Below are positions 9,009 through 53,709 of a stretch of 64,000 nucleotides of DNA, one piece after another. The notes beneath the pieces were generated by a model. It worked only from the letters and a program-made list of their open reading frames with translations, ran no database searches and was not told the origin of the DNA. The number at the start of each line of letters is the position of its first letter. Within the stretch, counting starts at the first letter, position 1. Position numbers and translations under genes: made by a program. The stretch comes from a virus: positions 96,001-160,000 of the IMG/VR virus record IMGVR_UViG_3300050343_000199; one strand, 5' to 3'.

Positions 9009-9080
9009 CTCCCGAGGCAGGATTTGAACCTGCGACCGAGTGATTAACAGTCACCAGCTCTGCCGCTGAGCTACTCGGGA
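9009..9080 (-). tRNA. trnN: tRNA-Asn (GTT)
   Basis: TCCCGAG/CTCGGGA acceptor stem, anticodon arm GGTGA-CTGTTAA-TCACT, T-loop TTCAAAT; no encoded CCA. Confidence 0.95.
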
Positions 9081-9106: not shown

Positions 9107-9718
9107 TTAGTTTGTAACTAAAGAATGCAACCACCCTGTAGCAATATATTTAATTTCGCTTTTGGGTGGGTATCCACGATGAAAAAAAGTCCAACATGCC
9201 GGAAAAATGATCATTCTTCCAGTCTTGGGTTGAATTTTTGTACCATCAATAAATTCTGTGTAACCATCTTCTACGATATCATTAAGATACCATATAAACG
9301 TTAACAGGCGAACACCACTATTTTCAATTTCAGACTTAATTGTATTAAAGTCACTATGCCAAGTATATCCAGAATTAGGATTAGTTCTTTGTATTTGATA
9401 CCCAGAATCTTTCATTTCATTTAGCAAGATTTCAATAGTATCTTTATTAGTGCGTTCTTTAATGATCTCACTATTTACATAATTTCTTAAATGCTCAGTA
9501 AGAGTTTTACAAAATACATCATCTTCATATTTCCAATCGGAAAGAGAAGAAATTTGTAGATCGGTAGAATCTTTTACTTCTTTGTTAATATAACCATGAC
9601 CAATATGACCTTCAAATTTACGCTCGTCTGCTTCAAATTTTTCAATACATGTTTTACAGAAATGCTCACTTAAGGCATTATCTGCACAGTATATAAATTC
9701 TGAATACTGAAAAGACAT
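9107..9718 (-). CDS. 2OG-Fe(II) oxygenase (prolyl-4-hydroxylase-like)
   Basis: YTWHSD (HxD), RLLTFIWYLND, GYTEF, FPACWTFFHRG and KYIATGW motifs. Confidence 0.9.
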   Translation of the reverse strand: MSFQYSEFIYCADNALSEHFCKTCIEKFEADERKFEGHIGHGYINKEVKDSTDLQISSLSDWKYEDDVFCKTLTEHLRNYVNSEIIKERTNKDTIEILLNEMKDSGYQIQRTNPNSGYTWHSDFNTIKSEIENSGVRLLTFIWYLNDIVEDGYTEFIDGTKIQPKTGRMIIFPACWTFFHRGYPPKSEIKYIATGWLHSLVTN

Positions 9719-9734
9719 AATACGAAGACATAAG

Positions 9735-9940
9735 GAAGGGGCATCTCACCCCTCAGAACTACTTGGTTAACAAGGCTAGTTTAACCCCGATCTCCCATTC
9801 AGGCAGTCGCGAGTTCGCGAGTGCGGGAGAATGCAACGATATTATTCGCTGCGGTGTCAGATGTTTTTGCATCTATGGTTTGCTTATCCAAGCAGGTTTC
9901 AGTAACACTCCTTATACCCCGTCTAAACCATGGCACCCCC
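9735..9940 (-). ncRNA. ssrA: tmRNA, piece carrying the 5' acceptor strand and the tag reading frame
   Basis: Starts GGGGGTG-CCATGGTTTAGAC (tmRNA-type 5' end); tag frame 9849-9799 = ANNIVAFSRTRELATA*, resembling cyanobacterial ANNIV..FSR..A tags; 3' boundary approximate (hairpin 9737-9753). Confidence 0.88.
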
Positions 9941-9945
9941 AGGAG

Positions 9946-10027
9946 TGGGCAGAGTTGGATTTGAACCAACGTAGGCAGAGCCAGAAGATTTACAGTCTTC
10001 CTCCTTTAACCACTCGGACATCTACCC
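9946..10027 (-). tRNA. trnY: tRNA-Tyr (GTA), located inside the tmRNA intervening segment
   Basis: GGGTAGA/TCTGCCC stem, anticodon arm GAAGA-CTGTAAA-TCTTC, long variable arm, TTCAAAT T-loop. Confidence 0.95.
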
Positions 10028-10029
10028 AA

Positions 10030-10080
10030 TGGAGGTGAGGGGAATTGAACCCCTGTCCGAAATACCGGTGGTGTCACCTA
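10030..10080 (-). ncRNA. ssrA: tmRNA, piece carrying the helix-2 3' strand, T-arm and 3' acceptor strand (permuted, upstream)
   Basis: GGAC-AGGGG-TTCAATT-CCCCT-CACCTCC-A; CACCTCC pairs with GGGGGTG at 9940-9934, giving G3:U70 and discriminator A; GGTGACAC pairs with GTGTTACT of the other piece. Confidence 0.88.
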
Positions 10081-10096
10081 TTCCACAAAAGTGGAA

Positions 10097-10169
10097 AGCC
10101 AAACACAGGACTTGAACCTGCGACCTGATCTTTACAAAAGACCTGCTCTACCAGCTGAGCTAGTTTGGC
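10097..10169 (-). tRNA. trnT: tRNA-Thr (TGT)
   Basis: GCCAAAC/GTTTGGC stem; anticodon loop TTTGTAA. Confidence 0.95.
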
Positions 10170-10617
10170 GTTTAAACTCTAAATGTCCCCATTGAGATCC
10201 CCAGAGTTTTTTTCCAGTCTCAGGATTAATTCCTGAATCCATGACCTTGTAGTCATTATAACCTAAAATTATGCTGTTTGTCAAGTAAGTTTTAATTCCT
10301 TTCCAAAACACCCAGCAAGTACATTCAGTATTACTACCGTGATATTTGCTTCCAATCAATTCAAATAATGTATCGCATCCTTCTTTATATACACCTTTTA
10401 GGTCATAATTTTTGACGCGAATTTTTTCCCCTTCTGGGAAAATACGAATTAGAAATTTCCTATAGGGTTCTCTTTTATGAAAAGATTGGGTGCCCTCAAA
10501 CCAATCACCACCAATCCACCTATGCTTGATAATAATTCTAGCATATCTAGTAGGATATTTTAATGCCTGTTCTTTATTGTCAAAAGTACCTTCAATATAA
10601 TCATGAAAACGTGTCAT
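10132..10617 (-). CDS. cpeT: CpeT/CpcT-like (T-type) phycobiliprotein lyase, copy 1
   Basis: EGTFDNKEQA..YPTRYARI, PYR, and WGSQWGHLEF motifs of the T-type lyase barrel; 3' end overlaps tRNA-Thr. Confidence 0.7.
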   Translation of the reverse strand: MTRFHDYIEGTFDNKEQALKYPTRYARIIIKHRWIGGDWFEGTQSFHKREPYRKFLIRIFPEGEKIRVKNYDLKGVYKEGCDTLFELIGSKYHGSNTECTCWVFWKGIKTYLTNSIILGYNDYKVMDSGINPETGKKLWGSQWGHLEFKRQTSSAGRAGLL

Positions 10618-40034: not shown

Positions 40035-40135
40035 AAAAAGTAAGATCATCAGGGAGATGATGGTTTTACTATTCCTCTGCGCCCTAGGCAGAGGTATGAA
40101 AGACGTGTTTATACACCCTATAGGTCTTGGTTTGA
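40035..40135 (-). ncRNA. psbA 5'-UTR structured RNA (PhotoRC-II-like)
   Basis: CCAAGAC..GTCTT, ATACCTCTGC-CTAGG-GCGCAGAGGAATAGTAA, ATCATC..GATGAT helices directly upstream of psbA; family assigned from recall. Confidence 0.6.
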
Positions 40136-40185
40136 GGAGTGTTACGAACCGTTAAGAAATATGTTGATTCCTTAACTAACCGATG

Positions 40186-50809: not shown

Positions 50810-50858
50810 ACTTCTAGTCTCTCAGAATGCTGCTATTATCTATCAAATATTTATAAAG

Positions 50859-50930
50859 AGCGGGAGATCGGATTTGAACCGACGACATCTAACTTGGAAG
50901 GATAGCGTTCTACCACTGAACTACACCCGC
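50859..50930 (-). tRNA. trnG: tRNA-Gly (TCC)
   Basis: GCGGGTG acceptor 5' strand; anticodon loop CTTCCAA; U discriminator. Confidence 0.93.
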
Positions 50931-50955
50931 AAAAAAGGAGGGAGGTCAATCCCTC
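50931..50955 (-). terminator. Terminator between the ncRNA and tRNA-Gly
   Basis: GAGGGA-TTGAC-CTCCCTC followed by C and T-tract. Confidence 0.7.
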
Positions 50956-50959
50956 ACTA

Positions 50960-51180
50960 GACTCATGCACGCCACTTGTTTTATTATTTCAGATGCTAAA
51001 CAAGAAAACAACCACACGGAAGGGGATTTACCACCAATATATTTTTACTGGAACATATAAACCAGGCGGCAAAATCTTCACCCGCACCAGGGCAAGTTTA
51101 GAGTCCATCCGAGACTGGACCAGAAGACGAATCTACCCAGCTCCACCAGGGCGAGTTTTATGAGTCATCCCGAGACTCTT
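50960..51180 (-). ncRNA. manA-like structured RNA with duplicated 5' module
   Basis: GTCTCGG..GAC..AAAC..GCCCTGGTG modules, CCCCTTCCGTGTGG, and terminal GTGGCGTGCATG; next to a tRNA; family assigned from recall. Confidence 0.55.
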
Positions 51181-51541
51181 TGTAATCACCAAAAGAAATT
51201 ACATCTTGCCCGAAAGAACTAGGATAATCTACAGGACCAGCAGCATGAGGAGCATCGGCAGCAGAAGAAAACGAAATGTTATCTAGGGCATCCATGTCAC
51301 CACCAGGACGAATGAGATAATCTGACGAAAGATTGAAGTTATATTCAAGTCTATCTTCTTCCCACTGCGATGTATTGTCAGTAAAACTAATAGTATTATT
51401 AATTTTATTTTTTAGATTACGAACCGTATTAAGAAGATCAAATAGTTCAGACAGATATGAATCATCACCCTCAGCAAGAGCATTGATTAGTGCCTGACGA
51501 ACAGATTCTTCTGCAGTTTCAAGATGTGATTGCATTGACAT
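51158..51541 (-). CDS. Hypothetical protein
   Basis: ORF track; last codons (SRDDS*) form the first RNA module. Confidence 0.7.
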   Translation of the reverse strand: MSMQSHLETAEESVRQALINALAEGDDSYLSELFDLLNTVRNLKNKINNTISFTDNTSQWEEDRLEYNFNLSSDYLIRPGGDMDALDNISFSSAADAPHAAGPVDYPSSFGQDVISFGDYKESRDDS

Positions 51542-51794
51542 AAGGATTTCTCACAGAATTAAATTTACGATATGCACATACATCTGGATCAGGGTCTAAC
51601 CATTTGGTGTACTCTGGATCTTCAAGGCATGTGTCAAGTTGCATTTGGTTATCAAGATAGTACATGTCTTGATAACGTTTAGTCCATTCATTTATTTTTT
51701 GAATGCGATAGTCAGGTCTACCGTTGATCTCCAAAAGACCGCACTGGACGTAGCGGTAAGGAGACCGCTCAAGAATGACTGTCGGTTTGTTCAT
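51519..51794 (-). CDS. Conserved cyanophage hypothetical protein
   Basis: PYRYVQCG..EINGRPDYRIQK. Confidence 0.8.
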   Translation of the reverse strand: MNKPTVILERSPYRYVQCGLLEINGRPDYRIQKINEWTKRYQDMYYLDNQMQLDTCLEDPEYTKWLDPDPDVCAYRKFNSVRNPYVNAITS

Positions 51795-51997
51795 GAAGCA
51801 TCATTGTGTTCGTTATAACTATTGTACCACTCATCATCATCCATTTGCGCTGCTGCTTGGTCCAGTTCTTCAGCTGGCATAGCAATGACTGCTGTGCCAT
51901 CAGATTTACGAACTATAAACTGTTCTTTTTTAGATTCAATACGATCCATGTAAGAATCAAAGTTTTTTTCAAACTCTTCTAGTGTTACTTCAATCAT
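51791..51997 (-). CDS. Phd/YefM-antitoxin-like small protein
   Basis: VTLEEF..NF..Y.D.I....E.FIV....G.AV..MP pattern. Confidence 0.5.
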   Translation of the reverse strand: MIEVTLEEFEKNFDSYMDRIESKKEQFIVRKSDGTAVIAMPAEELDQAAAQMDDDEWYNSYNEHNDAS

Positions 51998-52236
51998 ACT
52001 ACACAACAAATAGATTGTTCTTGCATATACTTAATTGACTCTTGACATCCACCAAGTTTGATGCCATCAAGGACAATCTGAGGGAACGTAGAGTTGTCTC
52101 CAAACTCCTCATAAAATTCTTCATAAGAAAAATCTCGGTCTAACTCATAGACAACGTACTTTAATTCAGACAAGTCCATTACTTGTTTAATTTTAGCACA
52201 GAACTTACATCCTTTTTTAGAGTAGATAGTAAACAT
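51994..52236 (-). CDS. nrdC: Glutaredoxin (CKFC)
   Basis: TIYSKKGCKFC, TFPQIV.DG..LGGC. Confidence 0.92.
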   Translation of the reverse strand: MFTIYSKKGCKFCAKIKQVMDLSELKYVVYELDRDFSYEEFYEEFGDNSTFPQIVLDGIKLGGCQESIKYMQEQSICCVV

Positions 52237-52895
52237 TATACTACAGATAGGGTTGCCATGGTTTCATCATAATCTTTCTGAAAAAGTTCTAATCCTTTAT
52301 CAGTTAGGACATGATTGTACATCTTATCAAAAATACCTGACGGCATAGTAACAATATGAGCACCATTATAAAATGCACGGGATACTTTATACACATCACG
52401 AAGAGATGCAGCAAGAACCTGAGTACGAACACCCTGTACCTGGTAGATACTAGTAATAGAACGTACCAATTCTAATCCAGAGATAGAATTGTCATCATAT
52501 CTACCAACAAAAGGAGACACATAAGTTGCACCTGCTTTAGCAGCAAGAATTGCCTGAGCAGCACTGAAAATCAATGTAACATTGGTACGAATACCAACAT
52601 CACTAAGAGATTTACAGACCTGAAGACCATCTGGAGTACAAGGAAGTTTAATTGTAGCAACTTCCTTGTACTCCTGATGTAAATTAATTGCTTCACTGTA
52701 CATCTCACCAACAGTACCGACAACCTCCATACTGATATCTACAATACCTAAATCTGCTAGTCCACGGTAAACATCATGTGGATCTTTACCGCTTTTTCTA
52801 ATTAGAGTTGGGTTGGTAGTTACACCATCAATAAGTCCAGTCGCAAAACGACTGGCAATAGAATCTACGTCTGCTGTATCAAGAAAAATTTTCAT
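52236..52895 (-). CDS. talC: Transaldolase (TalC/FSA family)
   Basis: MKIFLDTA, GVTTNPTLI, IKLP, NVTLIFS, YVSPFVGR. Confidence 0.97.
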   Translation of the reverse strand: MKIFLDTADVDSIASRFATGLIDGVTTNPTLIRKSGKDPHDVYRGLADLGIVDISMEVVGTVGEMYSEAINLHQEYKEVATIKLPCTPDGLQVCKSLSDVGIRTNVTLIFSAAQAILAAKAGATYVSPFVGRYDDNSISGLELVRSITSIYQVQGVRTQVLAASLRDVYKVSRAFYNGAHIVTMPSGIFDKMYNHVLTDKGLELFQKDYDETMATLSVV

Positions 52896-52921
52896 TTAAT
52901 TATATTGGTGAGTGTACCAAG

Positions 52922-53006
52922 CGGAAAGGGTGGGATTTGAACCCACGGATGCTCTCACATCGTCAGTTTTCAAGACTGATGCATTCAACCGCTCTGCCAC
53001 CTTTCC
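52922..53006 (-). tRNA. trnS: tRNA-Ser (TGA)
   Basis: GGAAAGG/CCTTTCC stem; TCAGT-CTTGAAA-ACTGA arm; long variable arm. Confidence 0.95.
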
Positions 53007-53199
53007 GAGATTCCAGTTTAACGAACTGTTCTTTAAGATTATAGAACAACTTGTGGTCATTTGTCAAGACATAATATCCGTCAATGTCCTTACCATCACA
53101 CGTAAATCCATAACCGATTACCTGTTCACACACATCGTCAATGGTAAAACATTTATCTGTATGAAGGTAATCGTGATAGCGTTCATCCAGATTAATCAT
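52963..53199 (-). CDS. Hypothetical protein; 3' end overlaps tRNA-Ser
   Basis: ORF track; ATG abuts the upstream stop; contains an internal sigma70 promoter. Confidence 0.55.
   Translation of the reverse strand: MINLDERYHDYLHTDKCFTIDDVCEQVIGYGFTCDGKDIDGYYVLTNDHKLFYNLKEQFVKLESRKGGRAVECISLEN
53038..53067 (-). promoter_or_regulatory. Sigma70 promoter for tRNA-Ser/talC
   Basis: TTGACA-18 nt-TATAAT. Confidence 0.75.
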
Positions 53200-53447
53200 T
53201 ACCGTTCCTCAAAATTAATTTTACGGACACGTCTTTTCTTACGTGCCTCCTGGTATTCTAAATCAGAATTTGTCAGGATACCATTATATTTAACAGAACT
53301 GTTATGATTCGTTAGAACTACTTGACTTAAATCAACAGCACCAACGTGGTCATCCACAACCCTCATTTGGTTAGGACAACCACAGAACTGAACTTTACTT
53401 GTACTCGTCAGTTCAATATTACATAGTTTGCATCTTGCAGATAACAT
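53199..53447 (-). CDS. Zn-ribbon-like hypothetical protein
   Basis: C..C...C.CPN motif. Confidence 0.75.
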   Translation of the reverse strand: MLSARCKLCNIELTSTSKVQFCGCPNQMRVVDDHVGAVDLSQVVLTNHNSSVKYNGILTNSDLEYQEARKKRRVRKINFEER

Positions 53448-53474
53448 TATTCAGCATTTAACCTCTTTAATTAA

Positions 53475-53546
53475 TGGGTGAAGAGGGACTTGAACCCCCG
53501 ACCGCCTCCGTGTAAAGGAGATGCTCTACCACTGAGCTATTCACCC
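53475..53546 (-). tRNA. trnV: tRNA-Val (TAC)
   Basis: GGGTGAA/TTCACCC stem; anticodon loop TTTACAC. Confidence 0.95.
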
Positions 53547-53549
53547 TAA

Positions 53550-53632
53550 TGTCGGTAAGAGGACTTGAACCTCCACGTCATAAAGACACCAGAACCTAAA
53601 CCTGGCGCGTCTACCAATTCCGCCATACCGAC
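53550..53632 (-). tRNA. trnL: tRNA-Leu (TAG)
   Basis: GTCGGTA/TACCGAC stem; CCAGG-TTTAGGT-TCTGG arm. Confidence 0.95.
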
Positions 53633-53635
53633 AAG

Positions 53636-53709
53636 CGACTCAGATAGGATTTGAACCTATGACCGACTGCTTAGAAGGCAGTTGCTCTATCCAGCTGAGC
53701 TACTGAGTC
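53636..53709 (-). tRNA. trnR: tRNA-Arg (TCT)
   Basis: GACTCAG/CTGAGTC stem; ACTGC-CTTCTAA-GCAGT arm. Confidence 0.95.

Follow-up and report, generated by a model that had tools for sequence, protein, structure and literature searches.

Anatomy of the tmRNA locus

The stretch of DNA analysed here, referred to as the window, comprises 64,000 nucleotides (nt), namely bases 96001–160000 of the 192,818-bp IMG/VR virus record IMGVR_UViG_3300050343_000199. The record is rated 100% complete, and the source genome is that of a T4-like cyanomyovirus, to which Synechococcus phages ACG-2014h and ACG-2014e are ~80% identical over 8 kb. On the minus strand of the window lies a gene for a two-piece transfer-messenger RNA (tmRNA) in which a complete tRNA-Tyr gene occupies the spacer between the two pieces. 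ARAGORN called a permuted tmRNA (tmRNA*) at 9708–10119, minus strand, with a tRNA-Tyr(GUA) at 9945–10027 inside it. The Rfam family cyano_tmRNA (RF01851) matched positions 9738–10112 over its full model (1–288) with 134.1 bits (cut-off 70, E 3e-36), and a second family, tmRNA_permuted (RF04321), scored 85.8 bits against a cut-off of 47. The RF01851 alignment displayed an 87-nt insertion in the loop joining both acceptor strands, where the model has ~10 nt. The circular permutation could also be read directly from the sequence, as the acceptor (3') piece is located upstream of the coding (5') piece. The features of the locus, in 5' to 3' order, are the following:

10255–10284, minus strand: TTGACA-18-TATAAT, a sigma-70-type promoter-like site that agrees with the consensus at 12 of 12 positions and lies ~86 nt upstream of tRNA-Thr; candidate start of the transcript, by consensus match
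10097–10169, minus strand: tRNA-Thr (UGU), called by ARAGORN; it abuts the 5' hairpin of the acceptor piece, likewise in many homologous contigs
10081–10096, minus strand: perfect hairpin at the 5' end of the acceptor piece, 6 bp with a 4-nt loop (UUCCAC-UUUU-GUGGAA), RF01851 model positions 17–34
10030–10078, minus strand: tmRNA acceptor (3') piece, with the helix-2 strand GGUGACAC, T arm, CACCUCC and discriminator A (10030), CCA not encoded (ARAGORN, Rfam)
10028–10029, minus strand: UU spacer from the tmRNA discriminator to G1 of tRNA-Tyr (sequence)
9946–10027, minus strand: nested tRNA-Tyr (GUA), 82 nt, long variable arm, discriminator A, CCA not encoded (Rfam tRNA, 58.4 bits; ARAGORN)
9941–9945, minus strand: CUCCU spacer from tRNA-Tyr to G1 of the coding piece (sequence)
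9738–9940, minus strand: tmRNA coding (5') piece, with the acceptor strand GGGGGUG, the helix-2 strand GUGUUACU, tag frame and downstream helices (ARAGORN, Rfam)
9799–9870, minus strand: tag frame AKTSDTAANNIVAFSRTRELATA and stop codon, with ARAGORN's choice of resume codon
9736–9754, minus strand: GC-rich 3'-terminal hairpin of the coding piece, the last helix of the Rfam model, terminator-like

The intervening segment of 89 nt is composed of UU, the 82-nt tRNA-Tyr and CUCCU, so the entire tRNA is flanked by the tmRNA discriminator on one side and by G1 of the coding piece on the other. The acceptor strands GGGGGUG and CACCUCC are paired at 7/7 positions and carry G3:U70 and the discriminator A73 (alanine identity); a T arm is present, and helix 2 is formed by GGUGACAC (from 10078) and GUGUUACU (9908–9901). 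When the insert was scanned alone, it was recognised as a full-length tRNA (RF00005, 58.4 bits, cut-off 29, model positions 1–71, 9946–10027). Its anticodon gta (ARAGORN), A73 and variable arm of 9–10 nt with a paired stem (class II) are those of a tRNA-Tyr, and of the 10 tRNAs in the complete phage genome no other is a tRNA-Tyr. An arrangement of this kind is far beyond chance. A minimum free energy (MFE) fold of the 201 nt at 9900–10100 reproduced the hairpin, helix 2, the T arm and a tmRNA acceptor stem enclosing the stems of tRNA-Tyr. An earlier reading made from the letters of the window without database searches (the sequence-only reading) had listed these elements, and its coordinates and counts all hold against the sequence, ARAGORN and Rfam, including the permuted call and the cyano_tmRNA match that it had proposed to look for.

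The promoter-like site at 10255–10284 (minus strand) sits inside a mechanically called open reading frame (ORF) at 10132–10617 on the same strand. This ORF also overlaps tRNA-Thr, so its 3' part is probably not coding.

Structural constraint on the tmRNA and on the nested tRNA

Homologues were gathered with a degenerate pattern comprising the T arm and acceptor strand, and the start of the coding piece. The resulting alignment A1 holds 57 distinct phage loci, including four cultured or single-cell phage records. Without any prior structure, RNAalifold predicted helix 2, the T arm and an acceptor stem spanning the insert. For the 27 pairs of the tRNA-like domain, 99.0% of cells were paired, as compared to 42–53% when the 3' partners were slid by 1–3 columns; double changes were found at 11/27 pairs (1–5 in the slid controls), and the covariation score was 0.355 (at most 0.125 in the slid controls). 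At acceptor pairs 2:71 and 3:70 (strand shown), AU/GC and CG/UA swaps occur across the insert, which is the acceptor-stem covariation that the sequence-only reading had suggested looking for. The T arm showed a GC/AU swap, and both strands of the 5' hairpin at 10081–10096 change together. The G3:U70 pair was retained in 57/57 homologues.

Loci that carry a tRNA in the spacer are called filled below, and those with a short spacer empty. The filled rows of alignment A1 behaved like the remaining rows. Across diverged lineages, filled alleles kept all pairs of the tRNA-like domain as well as G3:U70 and the T loop, and their tag frame stayed open; the 21 filled rows showed no enrichment of frame-breaking or stem-breaking changes.

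Eight distinct nested tRNA-Tyr sequences were recovered from related contigs. In the five variants that were tabulated, all acceptor and anticodon stem pairs are standard; the variable-arm stem and three anticodon-stem pairs (GC to AU, AU to CG and AU to GC) have undergone double substitutions, and UG, UA or CG is found at pair 4:69. Such compensatory changes in the stems are the signature of a tRNA under selection. With two detectors, covariation among homologues and recurrence in many independent contigs, the identification of a phage two-piece tmRNA with a complete tRNA-Tyr as its spacer is well supported.

Recurrence in phages and metagenomes

Among 101 IMG/VR contigs with identical flanks, the spacer measured 4–9 nt in 79 and 79–90 nt in 22. 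Each of these 22 long spacers of the cyanophage lineage consists of exactly one tRNA with 2–5 nt on either side. A further 17 metagenome contigs have exactly one tRNA in the spacer, so that the order of 3' piece, tRNA and 5' piece, which the sequence-only reading had proposed to seek in viromes, is represented by 22 IMG/VR and 17 metagenome contigs. No contig was found with a spacer of 31–61, 101–131 or 140–170 nt, the sizes expected of partial or two tRNAs. Four classes of guest tRNA were distinguished in this lineage:

tRNA-Tyr: UU or UC before the tRNA, CUCCU or CUCU after it
tRNA-Asn, first kind (Asn1): CCAA or CCUU before, UCAU or UCAC after
tRNA-Asn, second kind (Asn2): CUGA before, UAU after
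tRNA-Asp(GUC), from the metagenome scan: tmRNA discriminator, CCA, then immediately G1 of the tRNA

Some Asn1 alleles read A-CCA-A-tRNA at the 5' junction. The junctions are precise to the nucleotide in all four classes, and identical junctions were found in dozens of contigs from different samples and collections.

The tmRNAs of cyanophages Sf-FS3, S-CAM1, S-CAM3, S-SSM7 and AG-345-P14 belong to the same lineage (72–85% identity over the shared parts; RF01851 120–143 bits) and likewise lie inside tRNA arrays, Sf-FS3 having the same tRNA-Thr/hairpin context as the window. They differ in having a 5-nt spacer (CUCAU, UUCAU or UUCAG) and no nested tRNA. Sf-FS3 is an insert-free cultured relative of the Tyr form, S-SSM7 of the Asn form, and S-CAM1 and S-CAM3 of the Asp and Tyr forms. 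In the GenBank records of Sf-FS3 (L001), S-CAM1 (L002) and S-CAM3 (L003) the tmRNA is unannotated, and short 'hypothetical protein' coding sequences (CDSs) run across or onto it; S-SSM7 (H61) has a 'hypothetical protein' CDS under the tmRNA match, and the AG-345-P14 record has no annotation. Pipelines that drop tmRNA calls overlapping a tRNA can miss genes of the nested kind. In the S-CAM1-type context (L002, L003, L008, L011 and others), a conserved TGCTA(A/C)TATATACAGTG box ~35 nt upstream of the acceptor piece replaces tRNA-Thr and the hairpin; the box resembles a promoter -10 region, and a tRNA-Arg begins ~8 nt past the last tmRNA helix.

A looser pattern run over all phage two-piece tmRNAs returned mostly lineages with naturally long, tRNA-free spacers. 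One unrelated lineage contained a nested tRNA: the tmRNA at L193:3480–3844 (minus strand; tag GEQVEMAMAA, RF04321 67 bits) holds a tRNA-Ala(UGC) of 70 bits in a 90-nt spacer, and in its relatives L141 and L194 the spacer measures 70 nt and contains no tRNA. On the host side, three Cyanobium metagenome-assembled genomes (MAGs; L107, L109 and L110) have spacers of 98–99 nt, within which ARAGORN found no tRNA. Spacers of this length are also present in Cyanobium-type freshwater host tmRNA genes on metagenome contigs (L114, L120–L122, L131 and L134), those of L111 and L123 measuring 70 nt; the fold is a closed Y with two hairpins and a closing stem GCUCC/GGAGC, and ARAGORN did not recognise it as a tRNA.

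All guests of the cyanophage lineage (L005–L026, L111–L135) have GUN anticodons, i.e., Tyr GUA, Asn GUU and Asp GUC. In bacteria, the tRNAs with GUN anticodons are the set modified with queuosine. A connection with queuosine was considered and set aside: it was noticed after the fact, the guests are also array neighbours of the tmRNA, and the other lineage nests a tRNA-Ala(UGC).

Origin and turnover of the guest tRNAs

The nested Asn2 tRNA is 92–94% identical to the free tRNA-Asn located just downstream of the tmRNA in this window (9009–9080), Sf-FS3 and L024. Similarly, nested tRNA-Tyr is 82–90% identical to the free tRNA-Tyr found upstream of tRNA-Thr in contigs that nest Asn, an identity as high as that among the nested Tyr variants themselves. 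Judged by these sequence identities, the guests come from the tmRNA's own neighbours in the array, and the member found inside differs between phages.

A maximum-likelihood tree of the tmRNA was built with the spacer removed. The content of the spacer changed at least 12 times on well-supported branches of this tree, and a single clade was rejected for the Tyr-bearing (approximately unbiased test, p-AU 7e-13), the Asn1-bearing (1.5e-6) and all filled tmRNAs (1e-59). Four filled/empty pairs (L013/L038, L018/L043, L117/L031 and L116/L063) are 95–100% identical in both pieces. The interleaving of filled and empty alleles on the tree indicates that the tRNA was repeatedly gained, lost or exchanged; repeated gain and loss, and exchange of the cassette by recombination via the conserved halves, both fit the data.

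The junctions of empty alleles were inspected as well. Those of the Asn1 clade (CCUUUGCAA, CCUUGCAA and CCUUGCAG) have CCUUUGC in common with the 5' junction of filled alleles; close to the Tyr forms, UCACUC or UUACUU is found in some of the empty alleles. A simple deletion scar was rejected, no single deletion or insertion giving both junctions; the direction, gain or loss, is therefore not fixed by the junctions.

Tag reading frame

The tag frame is open and has a stop codon, and its core ANNIVAFSR matches the host tag ANNIVRFSRQAAPVAA (Cyanobium). Compared to the host tmRNA, the phage tmRNAs carry an extra segment of 21 nt (seven codons) ahead of the ANNIV core (window 9850–9880; alignment A1 columns ~262–282), which is missing from the tmRNA of L068. 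This segment forms a small hairpin, AGAUG/CAUCU, the strands of which change together in L004, L101 and L010. By ARAGORN's reading the phage tag is seven codons longer than the host tag at its start, and it ends in LATA instead of VAA.

Genomic setting

Neither SmpB nor a CCA-adding enzyme was found in the whole 192,818-bp phage genome, which extends the absence of smpB noted earlier for the window alone; the phage tmRNA must therefore depend on the host for both. A second tRNA cluster (Gly, Ser, Val, Leu, Arg) lies at 50858–53709 of the window, minus strand. Two cyanophage RNA motifs were also matched by Rfam on that strand, PhotoRC-II at 40061–40154 (71 bits) and wcaG at 51023–51118 (44.7 bits).

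Predicted expression and processing

By analogy with the known maturation of tRNAs and of two-piece tmRNAs, the following path is likely. A single transcript would start from the sigma-70-like promoter (10284–10255) and cover tRNA-Thr together with the hairpin, both tmRNA pieces and the tRNA-Tyr between them, and the host tRNA-processing enzymes would resolve this precursor into four stable RNAs. The 5' ends of tRNA-Thr (10169), tRNA-Tyr (10027) and the coding piece (G1, 9940) would be generated by RNase P; past each of the three discriminators, the 3' extension would be trimmed by RNase Z or exonucleases, and a host enzyme would add CCA. The two tmRNA pieces, held together by the acceptor stem and helix 2, would then be charged with alanine and act with host SmpB.

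The sequence-only reading had proposed that two RNase P cuts would release tRNA-Tyr and both tmRNA halves together. Two such cuts would indeed separate the three RNAs but would not finish them: the acceptor piece would keep UU as a trailer, and tRNA-Tyr would keep CUCCU. Given these trailers and the lack of an encoded CCA at both 3' ends, 3' trimming by RNase Z or exonucleases and CCA addition by the host would also be needed.

Contigs assembled from an oligo-dT metatranscriptome bridge both junctions, covering 9600–9984 and 9955–10300 with 6–7 differences. They independently confirm the arrangement, not its transcription or processing. The parts of the stretch left uncovered in metatranscriptomes X5 and X10 carry no meaning. 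A 187-nt contig from another study (X5), 100% identical, covers 9754–9940 and ends exactly at the predicted G1. This end was not counted as an RNA end, because the spacer differs between strains and assembly graphs branch, and break, at this same base.

Discussion

We interpret the locus as a functional, phage-encoded two-piece tmRNA of the cyanobacterial type, in which the usual 4–9-nt spacer is filled by an ordinary functional cyanophage tRNA-Tyr, the whole being made as one precursor, processed by the host, charged with alanine and used with host SmpB. We give this reading a probability of roughly 80%. The anatomy, the covariation, the recurrence and the polymorphism among phages are observed directly, and the single transcript, the cleavage sites, the charging and the ribosome rescue are what they lead us to expect. 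The spacer would amount to one more slot of the phage tRNA array, since the Tyr, Asn and Asp tRNAs that flank the tmRNA in some relatives sit within the tmRNA gene of others; filled and empty alleles would interconvert or be swapped by recombination.

Several observations weigh against this interpretation. ARAGORN places the resume codon inside the conserved AGAUG/CAUCU hairpin, after a UAGAU context, which makes the length of the tag uncertain; as judged from the sequence of the tag end, ...LATA as opposed to ...PVAA in the host, the fate of tagged proteins may differ. The MFE of the 201-nt precursor was not significantly more stable than that of shuffled sequences (z -1.27). The data from RNA libraries are assembled contigs, which cannot show RNA ends and may reflect DNA carry-over. 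Finally, the nested form was found in none of the cultured phages of the collection searched.

An insertion of 82 structured nucleotides between the acceptor strands might be expected to kill the tmRNA, leaving the halves as a decaying pseudogene next to the only RNA that matters, the tRNA, and the Rfam score is ~9 bits below that of the insert-free Sf-FS3 allele. However, the insert occupies exactly the segment that is removed anyway, four different tRNAs are found in the same slot without decay of the flanks, and the pairs, G3:U70, T loop and tag frame are kept by filled alleles of diverged lineages; we consider a dead tmRNA highly improbable. Still less credible, to the point of being negligible, is a chimera of assembly or binning that joined a tRNA gene into a tmRNA gene. 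Although the window comes from an uncultured viral contig, and the T arms of tRNAs are repeats able to confuse assemblers, an artefact of this kind is at odds with identical junctions in dozens of contigs from various samples and collections, with junctions exact to the nucleotide in four tRNA classes, and with the independent contigs from two runs of another study that bridge them.

A different matter is whether nesting is selected and not just tolerated, the tRNA serving as punctuation that makes the tmRNA ends, as a means of coupled output, or as a folding aid by which the tmRNA forms around a pre-formed tRNA. Pointing in this direction are the neighbouring tRNAs (the 5' hairpin of the acceptor piece adjoins tRNA-Thr both in the window and in many of its relatives, and elsewhere the 3' hairpin adjoins tRNA-Arg or tRNA-Asn), as well as the filled state of about one fifth of the matched IMG/VR tmRNA genes. 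In the Asp form, CCA stands between the discriminator and G1 of the tRNA (some Asn1 alleles having A-CCA-A-tRNA), so that one RNase P cut would leave a finished CCA end. The Tyr form, on the other hand, has no encoded CCA and would still require 3' trimming, 79 of the 101 alleles do with a spacer of 4–9 nt, and the near-identity and interleaving of filled and empty alleles are as for a nearly neutral trait. Selection for nesting is in our judgement rather unlikely. Equally tentative is a broader proposal: the spacer of phage two-piece tmRNAs may be a recurrent and exchangeable docking slot for tRNAs, and maturation of the tmRNA may include excision of the guest. The tmRNA termini would then be made by RNase P and RNase Z at the guest and at the flanking tRNA-Thr, -Arg or -Asn, and the cassette would spread between co-infecting phages, recombining via the conserved halves.

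The two-piece tmRNA of marine picocyanobacteria (RF01851) is the closest known system, sharing the order of the pieces, the 5' hairpin, helix 2, the T arm, the 7-bp acceptor stem, G3:U70, A73 and the tag core ANNIV-FSR. The tmRNA described here differs in being encoded by a phage whose genome lacks smpB and in having a whole tRNA as its spacer instead of ~10 nt. Several stable RNAs are released from one precursor in the polycistronic tRNA arrays of T4-like phages and in the tRNA-punctuated transcripts of mitochondria. The locus resembles them in its predicted resolution by RNase P and 3' processing and in having neighbouring tRNAs that define ends; here, however, one of the released RNAs is split, and its halves flank a tRNA and must pair across it. 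Large removable inserts in tmRNA genes are also known in the form of group I introns in the T loop (PMC11915505). In our case the insert is a tRNA positioned between the acceptor strands, and it would be removed by the enzymes that process tRNA ends, without a ligation step; it leaves the T loop intact and falls outside the tRNA-like domain, and Rfam returned no match to an intron family.

A 2022 survey (PMC9004378) covered two-piece tmRNAs of marine and aquatic phages, a cyanophage single-cell genome among them. A permuted tmRNA whose intervening sequence contains an intact tRNA-Ala was reported in 2025 for GCA-2688965 sp002688965.2, as one case, in one sentence, and called a 'unique feature' (PMC11915505). 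The suggestion of the sequence-only reading that a nested architecture had not been described consequently does not stand. That record is a MAG labelled archaeal, its guest is a tRNA-Ala, and it gave no match to the cyanophage flanks in our scans; L193, with its nested tRNA-Ala, may be of the same kind. A parallel to this nominally archaeal case is offered by the 25,856-bp contig L108 (NYWG01000192.1), assigned to a 'Verrucomicrobiales bacterium' MAG, which shares its size, match coordinates and tRNA calls with the IMG/VR cyanophage L007 and is a misbinned phage contig with a tRNA-Tyr in its tmRNA. A full-text literature search found no description of the cyanophage cases. The architecture is not new as a category; the novelty lies in its recurrence, in its polymorphism and in the set of at least four guest tRNAs within a single lineage of phage tmRNA.

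A published one-off thereby becomes a recurrent feature of marine cyanophages, present in about one fifth of the matched tmRNA genes. The halves of a split tmRNA can tolerate a folded RNA of 80–90 nt between their acceptor strands, and have done so repeatedly. The natural pairs of filled and empty alleles provide material for testing how two-piece tmRNAs are cut and how their halves meet.

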